DNA of 25,769 nt from Oscillospiraceae bacterium (GCA_051882075.1 JBJERC010000074.1:4629-30397), one strand, 5' to 3'; positions 158 through 17,767 are shown, counted from the first letter of the stretch. Numbers and translations: made by a program. Notes: generated by a model not told the origin, from the sequence alone.

Positions 158-1633
158 ATGGGTTTAATTAAGATGTTTACATCGGCAGTAGGCTCTAACC
201 TTGCCGATCAGGTAGTCGAGTATTTCCGCTGCGACGGAATGAGCAACGACACAATGTGTATCCCCGCAACGAGAGTTTTAAGGGGAAAGGCGCAGAACAA
301 AGGAACTGCGGACTACATTTCAAGCGGTTCGACCTTCGACGTTGCCGTAGGTCAGGCAGCTCTTTTAGTTGAAGACGGCAAGGTATGGGATATGGTAGTT
401 GCGCTCGACAACGACGGCGCAGGTCACTACAAGTATGATTCCTCGACCGCTCCTTCAATTCTCGGAAGCGGATTTAAGGATCTTATGCCCTCGATAAAGG
501 ACATCGGAAACAGATTTACCGCAGGCGGACAGGCAACGCACACAATGCGTCTTGTTTACATCAACTTAAAGCCTCTGTCGGGCAACAAGATCGGCTTCGG
601 AAAGGTGCCTTACCGTGACGGAGAAATGAACATCACAATCAACGCTCAGGGTCACGGCGAATTTGAGATCAAGATATTTGACCCCGGCGCATTCTATGAG
701 AACTGTATCCACGATATCTCAAAGCCGTTTATCAGAAGCGACGGAGACGGTTTTACATTTATCAACCAGTTAAAGACTGATATGAAGCCGAAGTTTGGTA
801 TCAGTCTTTCAAGAATCTCAGCTAAGAGGATCCCCTACGACCAGCTGATCGGTTATCCGGAGGTTCTGGAAGATGAAATGAAACAGGTTCTCAACGAACT
901 GTGGGCAGTTAAGGGAATTTCGGTCGAAAAAATTTCCATAGAGCTTAACGTTGACGACGAGTCGAAGGCAAGAATCGCAAAGTTCCAGGAGGCAAGAACC
1001 GCAGGAAGCGACCCCTCGATGCTTTACGCTATGGACAGAATGTCTATCAACAAGGCAAGAGAGACCGCTGCAGGCAACTCCGCAGGCGCTATGACAGGCT
1101 TTATGGGCATGGGCATGGCAGGCGGCGGAATGATGGGTCAGCCTATGGATCCGACTATGTATAATCAGCAGATGCAGCAGAATATGATGATGAATCAGCA
1201 GGCAATGTATAATCAGCAGCCTCAGCAGGCAGCTCCTGCACCCGCACCTGCACAGGCAGCACCTTCGGCAGACAGCTGGACCTGCGAGTGCGGCGAAACA
1301 AATACAGGAAAGTTCTGTCAGGGCTGCGGAAAGCCAAAGCCTGCGCCCAAGCCGGCGGCAGATACATGGACCTGTTCCTGCGGCGCACAGAATACAGGAA
1401 AATTCTGTATCGAATGTGGAAAGCCTCAGCCTGCTCCTGCGGCAGACGGCTGGACCTGCTCGTGCGGAGCTGTTAACAAGGGCAAGTTCTGTCCTCAGTG
1501 CGGCGCAAAGAAGCCTGCGGACGCTCCTCTCTACAAGTGCGACAAGTGCGGCTGGGAGCCCAAAGACCCCAAGAATCCGCCCAAGTTCTGCCCTGAGTGC
1601 GGAGACCCGTTTGACGATAACGATATTCAGTAA
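158..1633 (+). CDS. SPFH/Band-7 family protein of the YdjI type (COG4260-like) with a Met/Gln/Gly-rich linker and four C-terminal zinc ribbons
   Basis: 491-aa ORF with SD aggaaagga upstream. The N-terminal ~300 aa (MGLIKMF...VAVGQAALLVEDGKV...) follow the layout of the YdjI-type SPFH family. A GMGMAGGGMMGQ / QQMQQNMMMNQQ / APAPAPA low-complexity linker follows (1091-1270). Four CxxC-N(11-17)-CxxC modules complete the protein. Confidence 0.8.
   Translation: MGLIKMFTSAVGSNLADQVVEYFRCDGMSNDTMCIPATRVLRGKAQNKGTADYISSGSTFDVAVGQAALLVEDGKVWDMVVALDNDGAGHYKYDSSTAPSILGSGFKDLMPSIKDIGNRFTAGGQATHTMRLVYINLKPLSGNKIGFGKVPYRDGEMNITINAQGHGEFEIKIFDPGAFYENCIHDISKPFIRSDGDGFTFINQLKTDMKPKFGISLSRISAKRIPYDQLIGYPEVLEDEMKQVLNELWAVKGISVEKISIELNVDDESKARIAKFQEARTAGSDPSMLYAMDRMSINKARETAAGNSAGAMTGFMGMGMAGGGMMGQPMDPTMYNQQMQQNMMMNQQAMYNQQPQQAAPAPAPAQAAPSADSWTCECGETNTGKFCQGCGKPKPAPKPAADTWTCSCGAQNTGKFCIECGKPQPAPAADGWTCSCGAVNKGKFCPQCGAKKPADAPLYKCDKCGWEPKDPKNPPKFCPECGDPFDDNDIQ
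1271..1630 (+). repeat. In-frame array of four zinc-ribbon modules inside the SPFH gene
   Basis: Modules start at 1271, 1361, 1445 and 1532. Three close copies read D-x-WTCxCGxxNxGKFCxxCG-KP...; the fourth is divergent (YKCDKCGWEPKDPKNPPKFCPECG). The repeat is also visible at nucleotide level (tggacctg...tgcgg...ggaaa(g/a)ttctgt). Confidence 0.85.
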
Positions 1634-3490: not shown

Positions 3491-3528
3491 AAAAACCGTA
3501 TCATGCATTTTGCGTGATACGGCTTTTT
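3491..3528. terminator. Bidirectional intrinsic terminator between convergent genes
   Basis: Stem ccgtatca / tgatacgg (3496-3503 / 3515-3522), flanked by aaaaa upstream and cttttt downstream. Confidence 0.75.
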
Positions 3529-3532
3529 GTGT

Positions 3533-6082
3533 TTATGTGTTATTATTCTTGATTATCTCCCTTATCCGTTCGTTTACGGCTTCAACGTCCTTTTTAAGCT
3601 CGTTCGCCGTCATTCTGAGCGCGCCTGCACGCATAACGGAAAGCTGAACAAGCCCGTCGTTCGTCGCAACTTTTATGCGGAATTTTTTTCGGTTTTCGCT
3701 GCAAAAGCTTTCGATAAAAGCGTCGCTCGTCTGTCCCGAGGCTGTATAGATAACGTCTATCGCCTCGGCTTTTATTTTGTGCGGAGTCACGGCAGGAGTT
3801 TTGTAAGCGTCGAAAACGAGCATAAGCCGCCGCTGTTTATAGCCTGCGTAATTGCTCAGAATATCCGCAAGCCTGCCGCACGCCGAGTCGATGTTGACCG
3901 CCGCAAGCTCACGCAGCTCCTCCCACGCAAACACGATGTTATAGCCGTCGACGATAAGCAGCCTCGGACGTGTCTCGGGCTTTTGCTTGAATTCGGCGGT
4001 TTTGTTTATCCGCTCGTTTATGCGCTCGCCGTCGGACTTCGGCTTCTGCTCCTTTTTCGGAGCGATCTTCTGCATAATGCTTTCAAGCTCGTCCTCGCTG
4101 ATCGAAAAATTGCGCTGCCTTGCGTTCACGACCGTCTTTTTCTTAACGAGCGTCGGCTCAAGGTGCATATAATTTTCCGTTTCTTGCCAGCTTACCGTAA
4201 AGCTCGAACCGTGCGAGCAGAAAACCGAATCGGGAGTGTTTTCAAGGTCGGATTCGGGCGAATAGGCGGCATTTGCGATAATCTCCTCGCAGTTATGACA
4301 AGGCTTGTATCCGCCCGGCGAAAGGGAAATCCTGCCCCTGCCTTTTGTGTACGAGGCGACCTCGGCGGCATAATCACGCATAAGCGAAACGGGCGCTTCG
4401 CCGCAGATAAGCGACATTTCGCCTGCCGATTCGGGCGCGCTAAAGCTGCCGTTCATCTGCCTTATATCGTTTATCGCCCTGCCCGTCTGCGCAGCAGGAA
4501 CGGTGAGCTTAAAGGAATAATAAGGCTCGAGCAGAACGCTTTTTGCCTTCATAAGCCCGTGCCTTACCGCCCGATATGAAGCCTCTCTGAAATCGCCGCC
4601 CTCGGTATGCTTGGGGTGCGCTCTTCCTGCCGTCAGCGTGATTTTCATATCAGTTATCGGCGAGCCTGTAAGCACTCCTATATGCCGCTTGGCTTTAAGG
4701 CATGAAATAATAAGATTCTGCCAGCTGCGGTCGAGGATATCCTCGCTCAGCGCACTGTCGAACAGTATTCCGCTGCCGCTTGGCAAAGGCGAAAGGATAA
4801 CATGAACCTCGGCATAATGCCTGAGCGGTTCAAAATGCCCAACGCCCTCGACCGTATCTTCAATGCTCTCACGGTAAAGAATACGTCCTCCGCCGAACTC
4901 GACGTCAAGCCCGAAACGCTGTTTTATTAGGCACTTTAACACCTCTGTCTGTATCCTGCCCATAAGCGAAACGGTTATCTCGTCATGCCGCTCGTCGTAG
5001 GAAAGCGAGAGCTTCGGGTCCTCCTCATGCAATTCTTTTAGCTTTTCAAGCAGCGTAAAGCTGTCGCAGCCCTTCGGCGGAATAACGGCGTAGGTCATGA
5101 CAGGCTCGGCGCTATCGCCGCTGTCGTCCTGCTGTCCGCCAAGCCCCTGTCCCGAATAGGTCGAGCCAAGCCCCGTGACCGAGCAGACGTCGCCTGCGCT
5201 CACGCTGTTTACTGCGGTAAATTTACCGCCGCTGTATATCCTTATTCCGCTTATCTTTTCTTCACATAAAACACCGTCCTTTGAGGTGTAAACAACGCTG
5301 TCCCTTACTTTAAGTTCGCCGCCCGTCAGCTTTAAACAGGTAAGCCGCTTGCCTGCACCGTCACGCTCGATCTTGAAAACCTGCGCTGAAAACTCCGACG
5401 AAAACTGCGGAGCAAGCGTAAGGCGGTCGAGCGAGCCTATAAATTCCTCGACCCCCTGCGAGTGAAGAGCCGAGCCGAAAAAACAGGGGATAAGCGTTCG
5501 GCGGCTTACGGCATAGGCAAGCTCCTCGTCGGTAAGAGAGCCGTTTTCGTCAAAAATCTCGAGCAGCGTTTCATCGCACATTGCGGCGGCTTCGTCACGC
5601 TCAGGCGTCGGGGCGGAAAAATCGACGGCGTTTGGCGAAAGCTTGTTCTGAATATCCTCAAAAACCTCGCTTCGGTCAATGCCCTGCATATCCGTCTTGT
5701 TCACAAAAATAAAGGTCGGTATACCACGTTTTGACAGCAGCCGCCAGAGCGTTTCGGTGTGTCCTGCAACGCCGTCGGGTGCGCTTACGAGAAGTATCGC
5801 ATAGTCGAGCGCCGAGAGCGTCCGTTCCGTTTCGGCGGTAAAATCGGCGTGTCCGGGGGTGTCGATAAGCGTAAAACGGGTGTCGCCGAAGCTGAAAACC
5901 GCCTGTTTTGAGAAGATAGTTATGCCCCTTTGCTTTTCAAGCTCGTGAGTGTCGAGAAAAGCGTCGCCGCTGTCAACTCTTCCTTTTTTTCTCAGCGCTC
6001 CCGAAGAAAACAAAAGCGCCTCCGAAAGCGTGGTTTTTCCTGCGTCAACGTCCGCAAGAATACCGACGGCGATCTTCTTCAT
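3533..6082 (-). CDS. TetM/TetO/EF-G-family translational GTPase fused to a C-terminal YacP/Rae1-like NYN (PIN-like) ribonuclease domain
   Basis: G1 ADVDAGKTT, G2 RGITI, G3 DTPGH and G4 NKTD are followed by EF-G/TetM-like domains II-V, a Lys/Glu-rich linker, then LLIVDGYN...LVFDAYK...TSDAFIE...ATNDG...GALRMTANEL. I place the start at the second ATG (MKKIAV...). It has SD aaggggg 7-8 nt upstream, and the predicted promoter puts the TSS at about 6113, leaving no room for the ORF-track start at 6112. Confidence 0.88.
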   Translation of the reverse strand: MKKIAVGILADVDAGKTTLSEALLFSSGALRKKGRVDSGDAFLDTHELEKQRGITIFSKQAVFSFGDTRFTLIDTPGHADFTAETERTLSALDYAILLVSAPDGVAGHTETLWRLLSKRGIPTFIFVNKTDMQGIDRSEVFEDIQNKLSPNAVDFSAPTPERDEAAAMCDETLLEIFDENGSLTDEELAYAVSRRTLIPCFFGSALHSQGVEEFIGSLDRLTLAPQFSSEFSAQVFKIERDGAGKRLTCLKLTGGELKVRDSVVYTSKDGVLCEEKISGIRIYSGGKFTAVNSVSAGDVCSVTGLGSTYSGQGLGGQQDDSGDSAEPVMTYAVIPPKGCDSFTLLEKLKELHEEDPKLSLSYDERHDEITVSLMGRIQTEVLKCLIKQRFGLDVEFGGGRILYRESIEDTVEGVGHFEPLRHYAEVHVILSPLPSGSGILFDSALSEDILDRSWQNLIISCLKAKRHIGVLTGSPITDMKITLTAGRAHPKHTEGGDFREASYRAVRHGLMKAKSVLLEPYYSFKLTVPAAQTGRAINDIRQMNGSFSAPESAGEMSLICGEAPVSLMRDYAAEVASYTKGRGRISLSPGGYKPCHNCEEIIANAAYSPESDLENTPDSVFCSHGSSFTVSWQETENYMHLEPTLVKKKTVVNARQRNFSISEDELESIMQKIAPKKEQKPKSDGERINERINKTAEFKQKPETRPRLLIVDGYNIVFAWEELRELAAVNIDSACGRLADILSNYAGYKQRRLMLVFDAYKTPAVTPHKIKAEAIDVIYTASGQTSDAFIESFCSENRKKFRIKVATNDGLVQLSVMRAGALRMTANELKKDVEAVNERIREIIKNNNT
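3536..3961 (-). other. YacP/Rae1-like NYN nuclease domain (last 142 aa of the GTPase fusion)
   Basis: Colinear with the motif order remembered for B. subtilis YacP/Rae1: LLVDGYN, VVFDA, ETADE-IE, ATSD, GALR-SA-EL. The acidic residues in VDGYN, FDA, TSD and TNDG are all present. Confidence 0.7.
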
Positions 6083-6119
6083 GCTTAGCCGCCCCCTTTC
6101 CGAAATAGTCATTTTATTA

Positions 6120-6148
6120 ATTATATCACATTACGCCCCGATTTTCAA
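6120..6148 (-). promoter_or_regulatory. Sigma-A type promoter for the GTPase-NYN gene
   Basis: The minus strand reads ttgaaa-atcggggcgtaatgtga-tataat: 17-nt spacer with a TGn extended -10. Confidence 0.6.
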
Positions 6149-6322
6149 GGGTCAGTGATTTTTGCAGGAAACCGCTTGTGAAAATTCATGCAGGAGTTGA
6201 AATGCGGTGAAAAGTAGGATAAAAGCTGCACAAAAACAGTTCAAAAAGGCACGCAATTTCGGGGTAAAATGCTGTTTTACAATCTGTTAACAAATAATTC
6301 ATGAAAGATTAAAAGCTAAATC

Positions 6323-6351
6323 TTGCAATTTGCGGTGAAGTGTGATATAAT
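6323..6351 (+). promoter_or_regulatory. Sigma-A type promoter for gltBD
   Basis: -35 ttgcaa (6323-6328), 17-nt spacer, extended -10 TGaTATAAT (6343-6351). Confidence 0.65.
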
Positions 6352-6387
6352 AATCAGGCAATAGATAATTAAATACAGCGTAGTCAA

Positions 6388-6428
6388 GGGCGACTCTTAC
6401 TTTTTCGTAAGGGTCGCTCTGTCTTTTT
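6388..6428 (+). promoter_or_regulatory. Promoter-proximal terminator-like hairpin in the gltBD leader (candidate attenuator)
   Basis: Stem gggcgactcttac / gtaagggtcgctc (13 bp including 2 G-U pairs), loop tttttc, then tgtcttttt. It lies about 30 nt after the predicted TSS and about 100 nt before the gltB ATG. Confidence 0.5.
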
Positions 6429-6529
6429 CTGAGAAAAGGCGCATATCTATTATAGCACTTAAAGCACATAAAAATTGTTGCCGAAAATGACCGATGGGAT
6501 GGGCATACGGCAGGAAAGGGTGATTACAG

Positions 6530-9500
6530 ATGGTACAGACAGAGGTAAACAGGACGGAAAAAGGTCTTTACTCACCGAGGTTTGAACATGATAACTGCGG
6601 TATCGGAGCTGTCGTAAACATTAAGGGTGTAAAGTCGCACGACACGGTCGTTAACGCTCTTACTATTGTCGAGACCCTTGAACACAGAGCCGGTAAGGAC
6701 GCAGAGGGTAAAACGGGCGACGGCGTTGGAATACTTCTCCAGATCTCGCACAAGTTCTTTAAAAAGGCGGCTAAGGAGGATCTTGGCATAACGCTTAATT
6801 CCGAAAGGGATTACGCTGTCGGAATGTTCTTCTTCCCGCAGAACGAGCTTGCAAGAAATCAGGCAAAGAAAATGTTTGAGATAATTGCGGAGAAGGAGGG
6901 ACTTCAGATTTTAGGCTGGAGAAAAGTTCCTTCACGCCCCGAGGTTTTAGGACACAGGGCGGTAGAGTGTATGCCTGCGATCATGCAGTGCTTTATCAAG
7001 CGTCCTGTCGGCGTAAAGAAGGGCATCGACTTTGACCGCAAGCTTTACGTTGCAAGACGGGTTTTCGAGCAGTCGAACGAGGATACCTACGTCGTTTCGC
7101 TTTCGAGCAGAACTATAGTATATAAGGGAATGTTCCTTGTCGGAGATTTAAGAAACTTCTTCCTCGATTTACAGGATCCCGATTATGAGTCGGCTATCGC
7201 AATGGTACATTCAAGATTTTCGACCAACACGAACCCGAGCTGGCAGCGTGCGCATCCGAACAGAATGATGGTGCATAACGGCGAGATAAACACGATAAGA
7301 GGAAATGCGGACAAGATGCTTGCCCGTGAGGAAACGATGAAGTCGGAGCATTTAAAGGGCGATCTTGACAAGGTAATTCCCGTTGTCAACACCGAAGGAT
7401 CAGACTCCGCAATGCTCGACAACACGCTTGAATTCCTCGTTATGAGCGGTATGGATCTGCCCCTTGCGGTCATGATAACAATTCCCGAACCGTGGGATAA
7501 CAACGGAACTATGCCGCAGGCGAAAAAGGACTTCTACCAGTATTATGCAACAATGATGGAGCCTTGGGACGGTCCTGCTTCGATACTCTTCTCCGACGGC
7601 GATATAATGGGCGCAGTGCTTGACCGAAACGGTCTTCGTCCGTCGAGATATTATATCACAGACGACGGCTGCCTTATCCTTTCGTCCGAGGTCGGCGCAC
7701 TTCCTATCGACCCCGAAAGAATTGTCGTTAAGGAAAGACTCCGCCCCGGCAAGATGCTTCTTGTCGACACGGTAAAGGGCAAGCTTATCGGCGACGACGA
7801 GCTTAAAAATTATTACGCTTCAAAGCAGCCTTACGGCGAATGGCTCGACTCAAATCTTGTCTGCCTGAAAGACCTTAAAATACCAAACGCAAAGGTTGAG
7901 GAACATTCCTACGAGGACAGACAGCGTCTGCAAAAGGCGTTCGGCTATACCTACGAGGAGATAATGACCTCTATTCTTCCTATGGCGAAAAACGGCAGCG
8001 AGTCTATCGCCGCAATGGGTACTGACAGTGCGCTTCCCGTGCTTTCAAATCAGCCGCAGCCGCTTTTCAACTACTTCAAGCAGCTGTTTGCGCAGGTAAC
8101 AAATCCGCCTATCGACGCTATCCGTGAGGAGATAGTTACCTCAACGACCGTATATATCGGCGAGGACGGAAATATACTTGAAGAGAAGCCGGAAAACTGC
8201 AAGGTAATGAAGATACACAACCCGATACTTACCTCGACCGACATCTTAAAGATAAAGAATATGCACATTCCCGGCTTTAAGGTCGCAGTTATCCCGATAC
8301 TTTATTATAAGAATACAAGACTTTCAAAGGCGGTCAACAGACTGTTTATCGAGGCTGACAAGGCTTACAACGAGGGCGCAAATATCATAATCCTCTCCGA
8401 CAGAGGAGTTGACGAAAACCACCTTGCTATCCCTTCGCTGCTTGCAGTGTCGGCTCTTCATCAGCACCTTGTTGTAACAAAGAGAAGAACTTCACTTGCG
8501 ATGATCCTCGAAAGCGGCGAGCCGAGAGAGGTTCATCATTTTGCAACTCTGTTAGGCTACGGTGCGTCGGCGATTAACCCCTATCTTGCGCAGGAAACTA
8601 TCCACGAGCTTATCGGCGACGACCTGCTTGACAAGGATTACTACGCAGCCGTTGAGGACTATAATTCGGCAGTGCTGCACGGAATTGTAAAGATAGCTTC
8701 AAAAATGGGTATCTCAACTATCCAGTCATATCAGGGTTCGCAGATATTCGAGGCGGTCGGAATAAGCCGTGAGGTCATCGACAAGTACTTCACGGGTACG
8801 GTAAGCCGTATCGGCGGAATTACTATAAAGGATATTGAAAACAGCGTCGACGCACTTCATTCCGAAGCGTTCGATCCGCTCGGTCTTGGCACGGACAGCC
8901 AGATCGTTTCAAGAGGAAGCCACAAATACAGAAGCGGCAAGGAGGAGCATCTTTACAATCCGCAGACGATCTATCTTCTCCAGCAGGCTTCAAGAACGGG
9001 AGATTATCAGCTTTTCAAGAAATATTCCCACCTTATTACAGATGAAATGGACCCGATGAACATAAGAGGTCTGCTTGACTTCAACTACGCCGACGAGCCT
9101 ATACCTCTCGACGAGGTGGAAAGCGTTGAGTCGATAGTTAAGCGTTTCAAGACGGGCGCAATGTCATACGGCTCTATCTCGCAGGAGGCTCACGAAACTC
9201 TCGCTCTTGCAATGAACAAGCTTCACGGCAAGTCCAACTCGGGCGAGGGCGGCGAAAGCCTTGAAAGACTTCTTACAAAGGGCACTGAAAACGACAGATG
9301 CTCGGCGATAAAGCAGGTAGCTTCGGGACGTTTCGGCGTTACTTCGAGATACCTCACCTCTGCGCAGGAAATTCAGATAAAAATGGCTCAGGGCGCAAAG
9401 CCGGGCGAGGGCGGTCATCTTCCGGGCAAAAAGGTTTATCCCTGGATAGCAAAAACAAGACATTCGACTCCGGGCGTTTCGCTTATCTCGCCGCCGCCTC

Positions 9501-12650: not shown

Positions 12651-13829
12651 TCAGTTTTGTTCAAGCATTCTTTCGCAGGTAATATCCATCGCAAACGCAC
12701 CGAGCGGCGCAGTAATGAGGATAGCAAGCACGGCGGCGGTAAGCACGAGGTTTCCGCAGGGCAGACCCATCGAAAGAGGTATCGAGCCGATAGCCGCCTG
12801 AACGGTCGCTTTCGGGGTGTAGGCAAGCATACAGAAAAGCCGCTCCTTTGCCGAAAGACTTGTCTTCACCACGCAAAGCGCAACGCCTGCCATTCTGAAT
12901 ATAAGCACGGAGAAGAGGAGTATCACAGCTTTTATTCCGAAGTCTGCCGCATAGCCTATGTCGACCGCTGCGCCGACAAGCACGAACAGCAGAATTTCGG
13001 CGGCAGCCCACAGCGACGAATACTTTGCCGAAACTTTTTTCGCCATTTCGGGAGCTTTCCGAGCCATCGCTGCGCCCATGCCCATTATCGCAAGCAGTCC
13101 CGAAAAGCCGATAATTCCGTCGGCTGCGTCCTCGAGCGTAACGAGCAGGAACGAAACGCTTATTGTGATGATAACTTTAAGATTGTCGCCCGGCTTGAAT
13201 TTCTCAAACAGCTTTGTAAGAATAATGCCGATAATAAGTCCCGACGGCAAGCCTAAAAGTATCGAAGTCGGTATCCTCAGATACCCCGCCGCAGAAAAAT
13301 CTCCGCCCGAGGCAAGCTGCGTAAACGAGGAAAAAAGCACGATAACGAAAATATCGTCGACCGATGCGCCTGCCATGATAAGCTGGGGTATGCCGTGCTT
13401 AGTTCCTCGCTTCGTTTCGATAAGCCGCAGCATTCTCGGCACGACTACCGCAGGCGAAACGGCGGCAAGCACCGAACCGAGCAGTGCGGCTTCGATAAGC
13501 GATACGTCAAACAGAAACGGCGCAATTATAACCGTTGCGCAGATTTCGCAGCAGGCAGGAAGAAAGCACATAAGCGCCGCAGGTCTGCCGACCTTTTTCA
13601 GCGAGTCGGGGTCGAGGTTAAGCCCGGCTCTTGTGAGGATTATTATAAGCGCAATTTTTCTAAGCTGCGGCGAAATTTCAAGCACCGAGCCGTCGATAAG
13701 TCCGAGTAAATTCGGACCTAAAATAATTCCTGCAAGCAACATTCCGAAAAGCGGCGGAAAATGTATCTTTGCAAACAGCCTGCCAAGCGCAAGACCGCAC
13801 AGAAAGATAAGCGCAAAACTAAAAAGCAT
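12651..13829 (-). CDS. Cation:proton antiporter (Na_H_Exchanger/CPA family) without a C-terminal regulatory domain
   Basis: 392 aa and hydrophobic throughout, with about 11-12 TM segments. The N-terminus FGMLLAGIILGP and the motif MAGASVDD are typical of CPA antiporters. Confidence 0.85.
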   Translation of the reverse strand: MLFSFALIFLCGLALGRLFAKIHFPPLFGMLLAGIILGPNLLGLIDGSVLEISPQLRKIALIIILTRAGLNLDPDSLKKVGRPAALMCFLPACCEICATVIIAPFLFDVSLIEAALLGSVLAAVSPAVVVPRMLRLIETKRGTKHGIPQLIMAGASVDDIFVIVLFSSFTQLASGGDFSAAGYLRIPTSILLGLPSGLIIGIILTKLFEKFKPGDNLKVIITISVSFLLVTLEDAADGIIGFSGLLAIMGMGAAMARKAPEMAKKVSAKYSSLWAAAEILLFVLVGAAVDIGYAADFGIKAVILLFSVLIFRMAGVALCVVKTSLSAKERLFCMLAYTPKATVQAAIGSIPLSMGLPCGNLVLTAAVLAILITAPLGAFAMDITCERMLEQN

Positions 13830-15905: not shown

Positions 15906-16988
15906 TTATTCTTCCGCCACTGTCTTTTGCGAACCGGTCGGCGAGCAGTAAAGGTCGGAAATAAGTATCTTTGAGCCGTCCTTTTTCACGCCGACAATGC
16001 ACACGGGACGCTTGTAGCTGCCGCCGATATTATCTTTATAATCGTCGATCGAAAAATCGTATTCCGAGACGGGCAGAGACGAACCGGGCGACAGCTTGTA
16101 AAAATCGTAGGTTTCGGGCGAAACCATTCCGACTTCCTCCGCCGAGATCTCGTCAGCGTCCGAAAGGCTTTCAAGCCGCACAAGCTCGGGCTTTTGCGCC
16201 GTATAACTCGGAGCCTCCTCTTCGCCGCTTCCTGAGAAATACTTGTTCTTTATTTTAAGCGTGTCGACCGCCGCCGCGCTGCTGTAATTTGCCTTACCGC
16301 CCGTTCTCACAAAACAGCTAACGACCGTGACGGTTATCTCCTCGCCCTGCAAAGCGGCAGTTTCGGGGTCTATCTTAAATTTAACGTTCTCGACAGTTTC
16401 TTCCTCGTCAAGCGTGCTGTAGCTGCAAACCGCCCCTTTGTCGTAAGTAACCTCGCCGCCGCAGATTACGAATGTGTGTATCATTCCGTATTTCGTTTCA
16501 CCCTCTATCGCAGGAAAAAACACCTTGTAGCTGAGCGAATACCTGTCCGAAATGGGAACTCCGCTTTCATCGCTGCTGTACCGAAGCGTTGATAAGCCGA
16601 TATATGCGCCGTTTTCCGAAGCCTCGCCCGAGTCTGTCGATATTGCGATAATGCCGCTCTCGCTTTCCGTCGGCTTTTCGCTGTCAGTTAAATATACGCT
16701 TTCAAAAACTTCCGATTCTTCGTCCGCCGCCGTCCGTGCGTCGGTTTCTATCATGCGGTCTGTCGAGAAAAGCTGCGTTATGCAGACGACCGCCGCAAGC
16801 GCCGCCGTGCAGACTATCGGGAAAAATATCCTGAATACGCCCGTTTTTACGCTCTCAAAACTTATGTAAGCGTTTTTCTCTATCTTCTTCCAGTCGCCGA
16901 CATTTTTGCAAGCCTTGTCAATATCAGACCGCAGAAGCTCTTCTGTCTCTTTAAGCTCGCTGTCTGTAAGCTCAAATCTCTTTTTCAT
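15906..16988 (-). CDS. Single-pass membrane protein, putative anti-sigma factor with an uncharacterised extracytoplasmic domain
   Basis: 360 aa with a single TM segment (VFRIFFPIVCTAALAAVVCITQLF) after about 50 cytoplasmic residues. ATGA start/stop overlap with the upstream ECF sigma gene, with SD aaggag inside the sigma gene's 3' end. No HxxxCxxC (ZAS) motif. Confidence 0.6.
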   Translation of the reverse strand: MKKRFELTDSELKETEELLRSDIDKACKNVGDWKKIEKNAYISFESVKTGVFRIFFPIVCTAALAAVVCITQLFSTDRMIETDARTAADEESEVFESVYLTDSEKPTESESGIIAISTDSGEASENGAYIGLSTLRYSSDESGVPISDRYSLSYKVFFPAIEGETKYGMIHTFVICGGEVTYDKGAVCSYSTLDEEETVENVKFKIDPETAALQGEEITVTVVSCFVRTGGKANYSSAAAVDTLKIKNKYFSGSGEEEAPSYTAQKPELVRLESLSDADEISAEEVGMVSPETYDFYKLSPGSSLPVSEYDFSIDDYKDNIGGSYKRPVCIVGVKKDGSKILISDLYCSPTGSQKTVAEE

Positions 16989-17575
16989 TGCGTTTGTCTC
17001 CTTTCCTGTTCGTTTTGTCTTTCACAGCGCAGCTGCCTTGCCGCAAGCCTTATCGCTTTCTGATAGCGTGATTTTGCGGTGCTTTCGGGTATCTTCAAAA
17101 ACGCTGCGATCTCTTTAAATGTCATACGGTTGTATACTTTAAGTATAAGCACGACCCGATATTTCTTCGCAAGCCTCCTCACCGCCTCGAGCGCACCCGA
17201 AAGCTCCGAGCCGTTTTCAAGCGGAAGCTCACGCTCCATTCTGACCGCACCCGACCGAAAGCGCATCTCGCTGCGGTAAAGCTCTCTCGATACGTTTTTT
17301 GCGACGCCGAGAATAAACGCCGATTCCGAGCCGCCTTTTTTGAAAGAGCCTGCCGCCTGCGGAAGCCTTATAAAGGTTTCCGAAACGCAGTCCTCCGCAA
17401 TTGTCGGGCTGCCGTAAAGACCGAGACTGAAAGCGTATACCGCCGATCTGTATTTCAGATACAGCCGCTCGAGCGCACGTTTGTCGGCGGCACATTCGGC
17501 AAGATCGCAGCTTTTGCTGTCGGAAAGCTCGTCCGCAGCAGAGCCTACCGCCGCCGCAAAGCTTATCTGTTCCAT
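16985..17575 (-). CDS. ECF-type sigma-70 family RNA polymerase sigma factor
   Basis: Region 2-like LYLKYRSAVYAFSLGLYGSPTIAEDCVSETFIRL and region 4 HTH MTFKEIAAFLKIPESTAKSRYQKAI. I place the start at MEQISF (SD ggagg 8 nt upstream) rather than at the ORF-track ATG at 17608, which has no SD. Confidence 0.85.
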   Translation of the reverse strand: MEQISFAAAVGSAADELSDSKSCDLAECAADKRALERLYLKYRSAVYAFSLGLYGSPTIAEDCVSETFIRLPQAAGSFKKGGSESAFILGVAKNVSRELYRSEMRFRSGAVRMERELPLENGSELSGALEAVRRLAKKYRVVLILKVYNRMTFKEIAAFLKIPESTAKSRYQKAIRLAARQLRCERQNEQERRQTQ

Positions 17576-17767
17576 GTCCTTTTCCTCCGAAGATGATTTA
17601 TTATGCATAATTTTTATGTGTAGTTTTTCATATGAAATAAAATAGTGATTTATAATATAATGACTTATCAGGCGGCAAAAGATGATAATTAAGTGTAAAA
17701 TAAATATAAACTATTCATGAACTGTATCACGAAACAAAAAATTAACAAAATCACCCACCGAATTTAA

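Follow-up and report, generated by a model that had tools for sequence, protein, structure and literature searches.

A translational GTPase joined to a Rae1-type endoribonuclease in Clostridia: a candidate factor in stalled-ribosome surveillance

What role might be served by a single polypeptide that joins a GTPase of the TetM/EF-G kind to a ribonuclease of the Rae1/YacP kind? The question is raised by a gene at positions 3533-6082, on the (-) strand, of a 25,769-nucleotide stretch of DNA from an Oscillospiraceae bacterium (GCA_051882075.1, JBJERC010000074.1:4629-30397), the whole of which is referred to here as the window. The original prediction for this gene was that of a GTPase which delivers a nuclease to ribosomes, an architecture said to have no known functional description. 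Fusions of a translational GTPase (trGTPase) with an NYN domain had in fact been reported earlier (Atkinson 2015, PMC4342817; Matelska et al. 2017, PMC5499597); the architecture is thus already published, but it is experimentally uncharacterised, and to that extent the earlier statement stands. New here are a conserved extension of the GTPase, a helix motif in the tether that follows it, a floor to the length of that tether, and the adjacency of the gene to ylmH in some genomes. Based on homology and gene neighbourhood, we give an even chance to the proposal that the gene product is a ribosome-directed, GTPase-targeted endoribonuclease that would act in the surveillance or rescue of stalled ribosomes.

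The gene lies in a single open reading frame (ORF) spanning 3533-6112 (-), within which the likely start codon, ATG at 6082, gives the uninterrupted 849-residue product that had been predicted, the same as that of an identical NCBI protein (P0001); the stop codon, TAA, is at 3533-3535 (-). A ribosome-binding site, GAAAGGGGG (6092-6100, (-)), can be read from the sequence 9 nt 5' of this ATG. The predicted promoter at 6120-6148 (-) was confirmed to be of the sigma-70 type and near consensus, with TTGAAA and TATAAT separated by a 17-nt spacer, an extended -10 TG, and agreement at 11 of 12 consensus positions, the highest in the region. The gene is monocistronic with a leader of approximately 30 nt, no leader peptide, attenuator or regulatory RNA was found upstream of it by sequence inspection and comparison with Rfam, and the form of the promoter suggests constitutive expression. 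A terminator had also been assigned to the gene as its own; the intrinsic hairpin is present (3496-3522, with a 12-bp stem), but the runs of T that flank it on both strands make it bidirectional, serving the fusion gene (-) and also a convergent gene for an ATP-binding cassette (ABC) transporter (+).

The first part of the protein was found to hold the full Pfam set of five domains, in agreement with the prediction of intact G motifs and TetM/EF-G-like domains II to V (all features of the gene given below are on the (-) strand). The G domain (residues 1-225; 5408-6082) matches GTP_EFTU over residues 4-220 (4.7e-48) and carries the motifs G1 (ADVDAGKTT, 6029-6055), G2 (RGITI, 5915-5929), G3 (DTPGH, with the catalytic His78, 5849-5863) and G4 (NKTD, 5690-5701). 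It is followed by domain II (residues 230-311; 5150-5395), which is a beta-barrel in the AlphaFold 2 (AF2) model and matches EF-G_D2 at 2e-06 (28.3 bits against a cut-off of 27), domain III (residues 326-397; 4892-5107; EFG_III, 5e-11), the A-site-probing domain IV (residues 399-514; 4541-4888; EFG_IV, 6.6e-17), and domain V (residues 516-597; 4292-4537; EFG_C, 7.5e-17). The classical hallmarks of a trGTPase, namely G1 to G4, the His of DTPGH and a beta-barrel domain II, are therefore all present, and the AF2 model has a mean predicted local distance difference test (pLDDT) score of 81.5.

The last 142 residues (708-849; 3536-3961) had been assigned to the Rae1/YacP type on account of short motifs and retained acidic residues, and this assignment was borne out by a match of residues 709-848 to NYN_YacP (PF05991; 6.3e-38, 130.8 bits against a gathering score of 24.6). 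The domain also aligns with residues 3-139 of Bacillus subtilis Rae1/YacP in the structures 5MQ8/5MQ9 (E=1.2e-18), such that D7, D53, D81 and D104 of Rae1 correspond to D712 (codon at 3947-3949), D758 (3809-3811), D787 (3722-3724) and D809 (3656-3658); the published catalytic-dead form of Rae1 is the D7N D81N variant (PMC10351889). In addition to the four Asp residues, the G8-Y9-N10, W15, T79 and I84-E85 motifs of Rae1 are retained, and the fusion NYN domain would be expected to work on translating ribosomes as a metal-dependent endoribonuclease. It differs from Rae1 in that the latter is a free protein of about 170 residues, usually encoded in the gltX-cysS-mrnC-yacO-yacP operon, whereas the fusion domain is tethered to a 645-residue GTPase and occurs in unrelated contexts. 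Furthermore, the domain in the window covers positions 1-142 of the 166-position Pfam profile and lacks the C-terminal tail of Rae1, which some family members keep. All motifs quoted with the prediction, both those of the G domain listed above and LLIVDGYN, LVFDAYK, TSDAFIE and ATNDG of the nuclease, were found where they had been placed.

Conservation was assessed in an alignment of 41 sequences (the set of at least 50% identity) and in a wider set of 204 full-length family proteins (203 for the Asp residues of the NYN domain). Across the 41 sequences no variation is seen in G1, G2 or G3 (His78 included) and G4 reads (N/T/S)KxD, while in the wider set G1 is present in 202 proteins and DTPGH in 201. 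The four Asp residues are kept in 203 of 203. Conservation of this extent in the G motifs and in the nuclease site indicates that both enzymatic centres are under selection, and the fusion is predicted to be catalytically intact in both halves. Domain IV is the most conserved of the domains, with a mean column identity of 84% compared to 65-69% in the others, and it carries two invariant, family-specific loops, loop I (EGVGHFEPLRHYAE, 4808-4849; family consensus EGxGHFEPLRHYAE) and loop III (GRAHPKHTEGGDFR, 4586-4627; family consensus GRAHxKHTEGGDFR). This is as expected of a domain that makes a specific contact with the decoding site.

The possibility that the single frame is an artefact of assembly or frameshift, which had been named with the prediction, was ruled out by hundreds of independent full-length homologues from four data sources (NCBI, ENA, JGI and Logan). 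Both halves are present in all of the best 120 homologues, which are 50-69% identical to the window protein and 838-1040 residues long. The extent of the family was surveyed with a C-terminal query of 261 residues (extension, tether and NYN domain) against 1.84 billion representative proteins, which recovered no fewer than 251 clusters, defined at 50% identity, with E<=1e-30. Most of the best 150 matches to this query are of 820-1069 residues, consistent with full-length fusions, the shorter ones being fragment-like, and the fusion persists to about 35-40% identity. Reference genomes place the family in the Lachnospiraceae (Blautia, Acetatifactor, Pseudobutyrivibrio and the cultured isolate AC2029), the Oscillospiraceae and other Clostridia. 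A scan of genome contigs gave 80 loci, many of them with generic EF-G, of which 16 have the fusion (L001-L013, L015, L017 and L018; two of these as cut-off fragments) and two, L014 and L016, a stand-alone GTPase. The fusion is real and widespread. One of the loci, L018 (CAVJLG010000039.1, labelled Barnesiella intestinihominis), holds a fusion of 46% identity on a contig of 55.5% GC within a Bacteroidota bin, and is probably a case of bin contamination rather than transfer.

Which kind of GTPase the fusion contains was less obvious from similarity scores. Sequence matches in the PDB were led by TetM (279 bits), followed by TetO (262) and EF-G (245), while Foldseek recovered ribosome-bound EF-G and TetM at E-values of about 1e-51 to 1e-45, with EF-G the best at 1.9e-51. 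The best NCBIfam model is tet_protect (NF012153), with 451.4 bits against a cut-off of 775; the TetM/W model gives 317 bits against 1100, and the EF-G models TIGR00484 and NF009381 give 271 against 659 and 330 against 583, respectively. The protein resembles TetM and TetO in its five-domain layout, as a GTPase of the kind that would bind the factor site and probe the A site with domain IV, and EF-G in its fold and domain order and in that the first part of its extension aligns with the EF-G C-terminal helix. It is, however, only about 29% identical to either. From TetM and TetO it differs further in its location off mobile elements and in the C-terminal module, tether and nuclease that it has in addition, and from EF-G in a loop I that is four residues shorter and without GGRGQYGHV, a loop III that is not SYHDVDSS, and a location outside the rpsL-rpsG-fusA-tuf context.

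Closer relatives were found among GTPases that stand alone. Those of Neobacillus cucumis (L014, 5144-7090; 648 residues) and of a Clostridiales metagenome-assembled genome (L016, 5788-7755; 655 residues) stop directly after a YMH motif, lack both the tether and the NYN domain, and share with the fusion the motifs HFEPL(R/G)HYAE, GRAHxKHT(E/S)GGDF and a C-terminal GY.xC...FCxxG...YMH. This large family of proteins of about 650 residues (P0270-P0389) is widespread in Bacillaceae, including Priestia megaterium (P0385), and occurs in some Clostridia. Its members are named inconsistently in databases (TetM family, EF-G, GTP-binding protein, translation factor GTPase family protein), fail all curated cut-offs, and appear to be uncharacterised, as no characterisation was found in the literature. 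In a simple distance tree, which included one TetM sequence, the fusions and stand-alones, about 42% identical to one another, formed one clade in 100 of 100 bootstraps. The identity of this clade to TetM and to EF-G is about 29% in each case, and the fusions by themselves were monophyletic in 57 of 100 bootstraps. As judged by these comparisons, the window gene belongs to a trGTPase subfamily that is distinct and as yet unnamed, and its product has gained a tether and a Rae1 domain; the fusion is a derived architecture within or beside the stand-alone group, the latter being its sister or its parent.

A tetracycline-type protection protein, or one protecting against other A-site antibiotics, with an accessory RNase that aids resistance, was suggested for such fusions by Atkinson 2015 (PMC4342817). 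Besides the first rank of tet_protect (451 bits) among models and of TetM among PDB sequence matches, this proposal could draw on the efflux genes of MATE and ABC type that neighbour the fusion in several loci, including the adjoining ABC exporter in the window, and on two findings for Rae1 of B. subtilis, its regulation of the multidrug exporter bmrCD and its response to antibiotics that target the ribosome. We nevertheless regard it as very improbable. The 775-bit cut-off is far above the scores of the fusion and of its relatives (407-437 bits for another fusion member and two stand-alones), and identity to TetM is no higher than that to EF-G. In TetM, Pro509 occupies the tetracycline site against C1054 (PMC8161019); when G504-LYYSP-V of TetM is aligned to G486-RAHPK-H of the fusion, Pro509 is replaced by the invariant K491, and the neighbouring P490 is variable in the family. 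Loops I and III are unlike those of TetM (HIEVPPNPFWAS and GLYYSPVSTPADF) and also unlike those of EF-G (QSGGRGQYGHV and GSYHDVDSSEMAF), a His at the tip of loop III being the sole loop feature in common with EF-G. Moreover, the genes lie on chromosomes in a variety of housekeeping surroundings, where neither a transposon nor a conjugative element was seen, the upstream region has no leader peptide, attenuator or Rfam match, and the displacement of a drug would need no invariant nuclease active site. A true Tet protection protein was accordingly rejected on the curated cut-offs, the Pro509 to Lys replacement, the domain IV loops and the genomic context. It had also been anticipated that a tetracycline-resistance-like GTPase annotation would hide the nuclease, but the reverse applies: the NCBI name, NYN domain-containing protein, hides the GTPase. 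The stand-alone family, on the other hand, probably gives rise to false tet calls when resistomes are surveyed.

The segment of about 110 residues between domain V and the NYN domain had been described as a Lys/Glu-rich linker of about 60 residues. Such a stretch, basic and variable, does exist at residues ~676-707, but the remainder is a conserved extension followed by a conserved motif. The extension (residues ~590/598-645; 4148-4291) is family-specific and modelled by AF2 as a helix and beta-hairpin; over residues 590-645 its mean column identity is 72% and its pLDDT about 82-89. The stand-alone relatives L014 and L016 finish exactly at the end of this module. Neither it nor the tether has a sequence relative in the PDB. 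Four of its residues, C595, C622, H624 and H640, are invariant within the 41-sequence set; a Zn-binding site composed of these four was considered and is unproven, given that the Neobacillus stand-alone has Lys at H624 and that many distant members are without FCxHG. The tether proper (residues 646-707; 3962-4147) consists of a variable segment, a conserved and predicted helical motif (FSISEDELESIMQK..., residues 659-680; 4043-4108), and a variable segment rich in Lys, Glu and Arg. The motif has the consensus SIDExELEAIMEREFGPIRRPxY and a column identity of 77%, compared to 38-47% in its variable and disordered flanks, and AF2 confidence in the tether is low save for helices at 663-673 and 684-695. 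The spacing from H640 to D712 is 63-74 residues in 40 of the 41 sequences, which could be taken for a fixed length; this holds just within the set of at least 50% identity, and across the wider family the length has a floor, with spacers never shorter than ~63 residues and up to ~130 residues longer. Such a floor, with longer variants tolerated, fits a target distant from the C-terminus of the GTPase and not the adjacent A site.

The long variants, P0017 (1040 residues), P0181 (1069 residues) and others of 957-1002 residues, have the same domains with longer spacers, that between domain V and NYN reaching ~237 residues. P0017 also has an insertion of about 120 residues between domains IV and V, which at first had the appearance of an internal duplication. 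No extra domain that might reveal a function was found in the variants of 957-1069 residues, the longer spacers being their only addition.

Could the two halves nonetheless be independent, the fusion merely serving to co-express or co-localise a housekeeping Rae1 and a trGTPase that has nothing to do with it, or might the NYN domain bind RNA without cutting it? The stand-alone GTPases of about 650 residues evidently function without an NYN domain, Rae1 functions without a GTPase, and the monophyly of the fusions is recovered in little more than half of the bootstraps. However, retention of the fusion to about 35-40% identity and across the at least 251 clusters, the conserved motif and length floor of the spacer, and the complete retention of the four catalytic Asp residues (which speaks against a purely binding role) all count against it. 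So does the finding that the halves do not occur as adjacent separate genes in any of 27 fusion loci or 2 stand-alone loci. On this evidence the independence of the halves is improbable, and a coupled, GTPase-targeted nuclease is the preferred interpretation.

The prediction had placed the cut of Rae1 at the ribosomal A site, the site that domain IV of a TetM- or EF-G-like factor also reaches, and had proposed that the two domains meet there. The A-site model of Rae1 cleavage has since been withdrawn by the discoverers of Rae1 (2025), and papers of 2025-26 place the cut at the tail of ribosomes that have stalled or collided, 12 nt upstream of the A site. Collided ribosomes may be required for the cleavage (PMC12407103), and according to a 2026 preprint Rae1 generates tmRNA (transfer-messenger RNA) substrates from them (PMC13622287). 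Since the A-site model is superseded, the geometric argument built on it fails, and with a tether of at least ~63 residues a meeting of domain IV and NYN at the A site is not the expected geometry. The idea that the GTPase delivers the nuclease to ribosomes is reasonable, the architecture being real and the catalytic centres intact; it is the A-site geometry of the prediction that is outdated. No ribosome-bound structure of Rae1 is cited in the Rae1 literature examined.

Comparison of the neighbourhoods of 27 distinct fusion loci revealed that ylmH directly adjoins the fusion gene in six of them, in two gene orders. The adjoining gene was identified as ylmH by its YlmH_RBD and S4 domains and by its match to B. 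subtilis YlmH (PDB 8S1P, E=2e-22). In one clade, whose members are 68-73% identical to each other, it lies immediately downstream with stop and start codons overlapping in each of the five tested (ylmH-like genes at L081 10651-11397, L089 7600-8331, L091 7582-8328, L093 5893-6639 and L094 6618-7364). In AC2029, a distant Lachnospiraceae isolate (L015, 5251-5991), it directly precedes the fusion gene, from which 10 nt separate it. These copies sit outside the usual dcw/ylm cluster. YlmH is a factor of ribosome-associated quality control (RQC) that binds 50S-peptidyl-tRNA complexes and supports Ala-tailing; the paper describing it makes no mention of a GTPase or NYN neighbour of ylmH (PMC11317155). 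By our rough estimate, a given single-copy gene would be the immediate neighbour by chance in ~2 of 3000 cases, and two arrangements among ~15 independent contexts would arise at ~5e-5. The link suggests a connection between nuclease-dependent and RQC-type rescue.

Taken with homology, these data lead to the following proposal for a role in stalled-ribosome rescue, in which both the order of events and the downstream pathway are inferred. In its GTP form the EF-G/TetM-like module would dock in the ribosomal factor-binding site, where domain IV would read the state of the A site. Docking would put RNA of that ribosome, or of a neighbour that has collided with it, in range of the tethered NYN domain. 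The likeliest target would be mRNA at the border of the stalled ribosome, the place at which free Rae1 makes its cut. The cut would yield a truncated message for rescue by tmRNA and/or by RQC involving YlmH, and GTP hydrolysis would release the factor.

The target of the nuclease might instead be rRNA or tRNA, with the fusion serving in GTPase-guided rRNA maturation or in the inactivation or turnover of ribosomes, for example by cutting defective or idle ribosomes in helix 44 (h44), at the 3' end of 16S rRNA or close to the sarcin-ricin loop. It is established for EF-G and TetM that the factor-binding site adjoins h44, the base of the L11 stalk and the sarcin-ricin loop. In addition, stand-alone yacP lies in a gltX-cysS-mrnC-yacO operon with rRNA-processing genes, and maturation of rRNA or tRNA was the function first predicted for it (PMC5499597, PMC4342817). 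Opposed to this are the cutting of mRNA by Rae1, the sole characterised NYN_YacP enzyme; the long minimum length of the tether, which argues for a target far from the body of the GTPase and not for adjacent rRNA; and the recurrent partner ylmH, which serves the rescue of stalled complexes and not ribosome assembly. Nor were rRNA-processing genes found in the neighbourhoods, and no gene of the cysS-mrnC-yacO-yacP set is adjacent to the fusion in the window or in the 27 loci. A target in rRNA or tRNA is on balance unlikely, though the most probable of the alternatives.

An abortive-infection or toxin-like role was also raised with the prediction, whereby the protein would be a toxin or anti-phage effector and would halt translation through RNA cleavage on the ribosome. 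Ribosome-dependent RNases such as the RelE-type toxins do exist, and an unregulated nuclease could be toxic. However, PADLOC gave no match, the lone hit (E=0.009) lying in the low-complexity tether; there is no antitoxin-like partner, and the gene is monocistronic among housekeeping neighbours. No mobile element, toxin-antitoxin pair or defence gene was seen in the window, which is ordinary chromosome, and among the loci compared a serine recombinase lies near the fusion gene in one (L092), most having no mobile-element genes. A scan of the IMG/VR viral collection found a family member in 5 of 2.9 million contigs (L097-L101), and in three of these (L098, L099 and L101) it is at the contig end, consistent with host DNA flanking prophages and not with phage-encoded copies. 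Together with the broad spread of the family over the Lachnospiraceae and Oscillospiraceae, these negative scans and the housekeeping context leave the toxin proposal without support, and we consider it extremely unlikely.

Several observations weigh against the proposal of a ribosome-directed, GTPase-targeted endoribonuclease. No experimental work on any fusion member was found in the literature, nor any discussion of the fusion later than the two reports, and both ribosome binding and the RNA substrate are attributed to it by homology. The P-loop departs from the usual form in 18 of 202 members, the window among them, through a His to Asp replacement (AHxDxGK to ADxDxGK; ADVDAGKTT in the window, residue 11). 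The ylmH link is absent from 21 of the 27 loci, including the window, and could represent the synteny of one clade plus one coincidence; no smpB, rqcH, mutS2 or arfB was seen near the fusion gene across the neighbourhoods. Lastly, free Rae1 works without a GTPase, and for that reason the benefit of the fusion is unexplained.

A more specific version, that the fusion is a sensor and effector for collided ribosomes in one polypeptide, is put forward as a more speculative extension, held well short of an even chance. The EF-G-like module would bind the trailing ribosome, which is stuck before translocation in a state that EF-G normally recognises, or alternatively the leading ribosome with its empty A site, as TetM does. 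The tether, given its minimum length, would give the Rae1 domain access to the short piece of mRNA that separates the two ribosomes. This piece would lie beside the mRNA entry and factor side of the trailing one and would be the cut site of free Rae1, 12 nt upstream of the stalled A site. Hydrolysis of GTP would then release or split the complex for tmRNA and, in the clade with the fusion-ylmH operon, also for Ala-tailing by YlmH and RqcH.

In eukaryotic no-go decay, the GTPase Hbs1 with Dom34/Pelota probes the stalled A site and an endonuclease, Cue2/NONU-1, cuts the mRNA nearby. If the collision version were true, the fusion would be a single-chain bacterial counterpart of Hbs1-Dom34 and Cue2, by analogy alone, as those are separate polypeptides of other GTPase and nuclease families with no homology implied. 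A further analogy is offered by MutS2 of B. subtilis and SmrB of E. coli, in which an NTPase or ribosome-binding module is combined with a small endonuclease-type domain and whose action on ribosomes that have stalled or collided precedes tmRNA or RQC; these, however, comprise an ABC-type ATPase and an SMR domain, folds unrelated to trGTPase and NYN, and MutS2 binds the disome interface and not the factor site and does not cut mRNA.

With the A-site model of Rae1 withdrawn, the fusion is of value in that it pins a Rae1 domain to a factor with a known binding site. The length floor of the tether makes the fusion usable as a ready-made geometric probe of Rae1 position, and were the collision version to hold, it would be a natural molecular ruler for that position. 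It is likewise a good target for cryo-electron microscopy, given that the GTPase could be trapped on ribosomes with GDPNP or by mutation of His78. The family is common in Lachnospiraceae and Oscillospiraceae of the human and animal gut, bacteria that have been little studied and in which it may be a major route for the clearance of stalled ribosomes. The definition of the unnamed trGTPase subfamily also matters for resistome surveys, its members often being mislabelled as tetracycline-resistance protein or EF-G.

An unbiased comparison of the fusion loci for recurrent neighbours gave, apart from ylmH, MatE genes at five (L001, L002, L006, L011 and L092), GreA genes at three (L001, L006 and L007), and mixed ABC ATPases; little weight is placed on these because they belong to abundant families, and the efflux genes among them are the sole hint of an antibiotic-response role. 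A stand-alone NYN gene was not found within the flanks of any locus. In one lineage (L095, 6708-7694) the fusion is convergent with rplL-rplJ, which encode the L7/L12 stalk that recruits translational GTPases, but as these genes are not co-transcribed with the fusion their proximity is probably a coincidence.

The rest of the window is a housekeeping neighbourhood. The ABC exporter convergent with the fusion gene is on the (+) strand, and gltB-gltD is divergent from it, with gltB starting at 6530. Elsewhere are genes for a cyclophilin and a lipoate/biotin ligase-family protein, a MarR gene with two ABC exporter genes, and metG, tRNA-Arg and rplM-rpsI, together with a 491-residue ORF at 158-1633 (+) that has no Pfam match at E<=1e-5. 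An ECF-type (extracytoplasmic function) sigma factor gene at 16985-17608 (-) overlaps by 4 nt a 360-residue ORF at 15906-16988 with no Pfam match, which may encode its anti-sigma factor. A gene of the Na+/H+-exchanger family (PF00999; ORF 12651-13829, (-)) has directly upstream a fluoride riboswitch (RF01734; 13881-13960, (-); 36.2 bits against a gathering score of 34), which suggests that it encodes a fluoride-responsive transporter. Finally, the region upstream of gltB (6113-6529, (+)) contains a good promoter at 6323-6351 and after it, with no Rfam match, a strong terminator-like hairpin and T-run at 6387-6420 that may be a leader or attenuator of the glutamate synthase genes.

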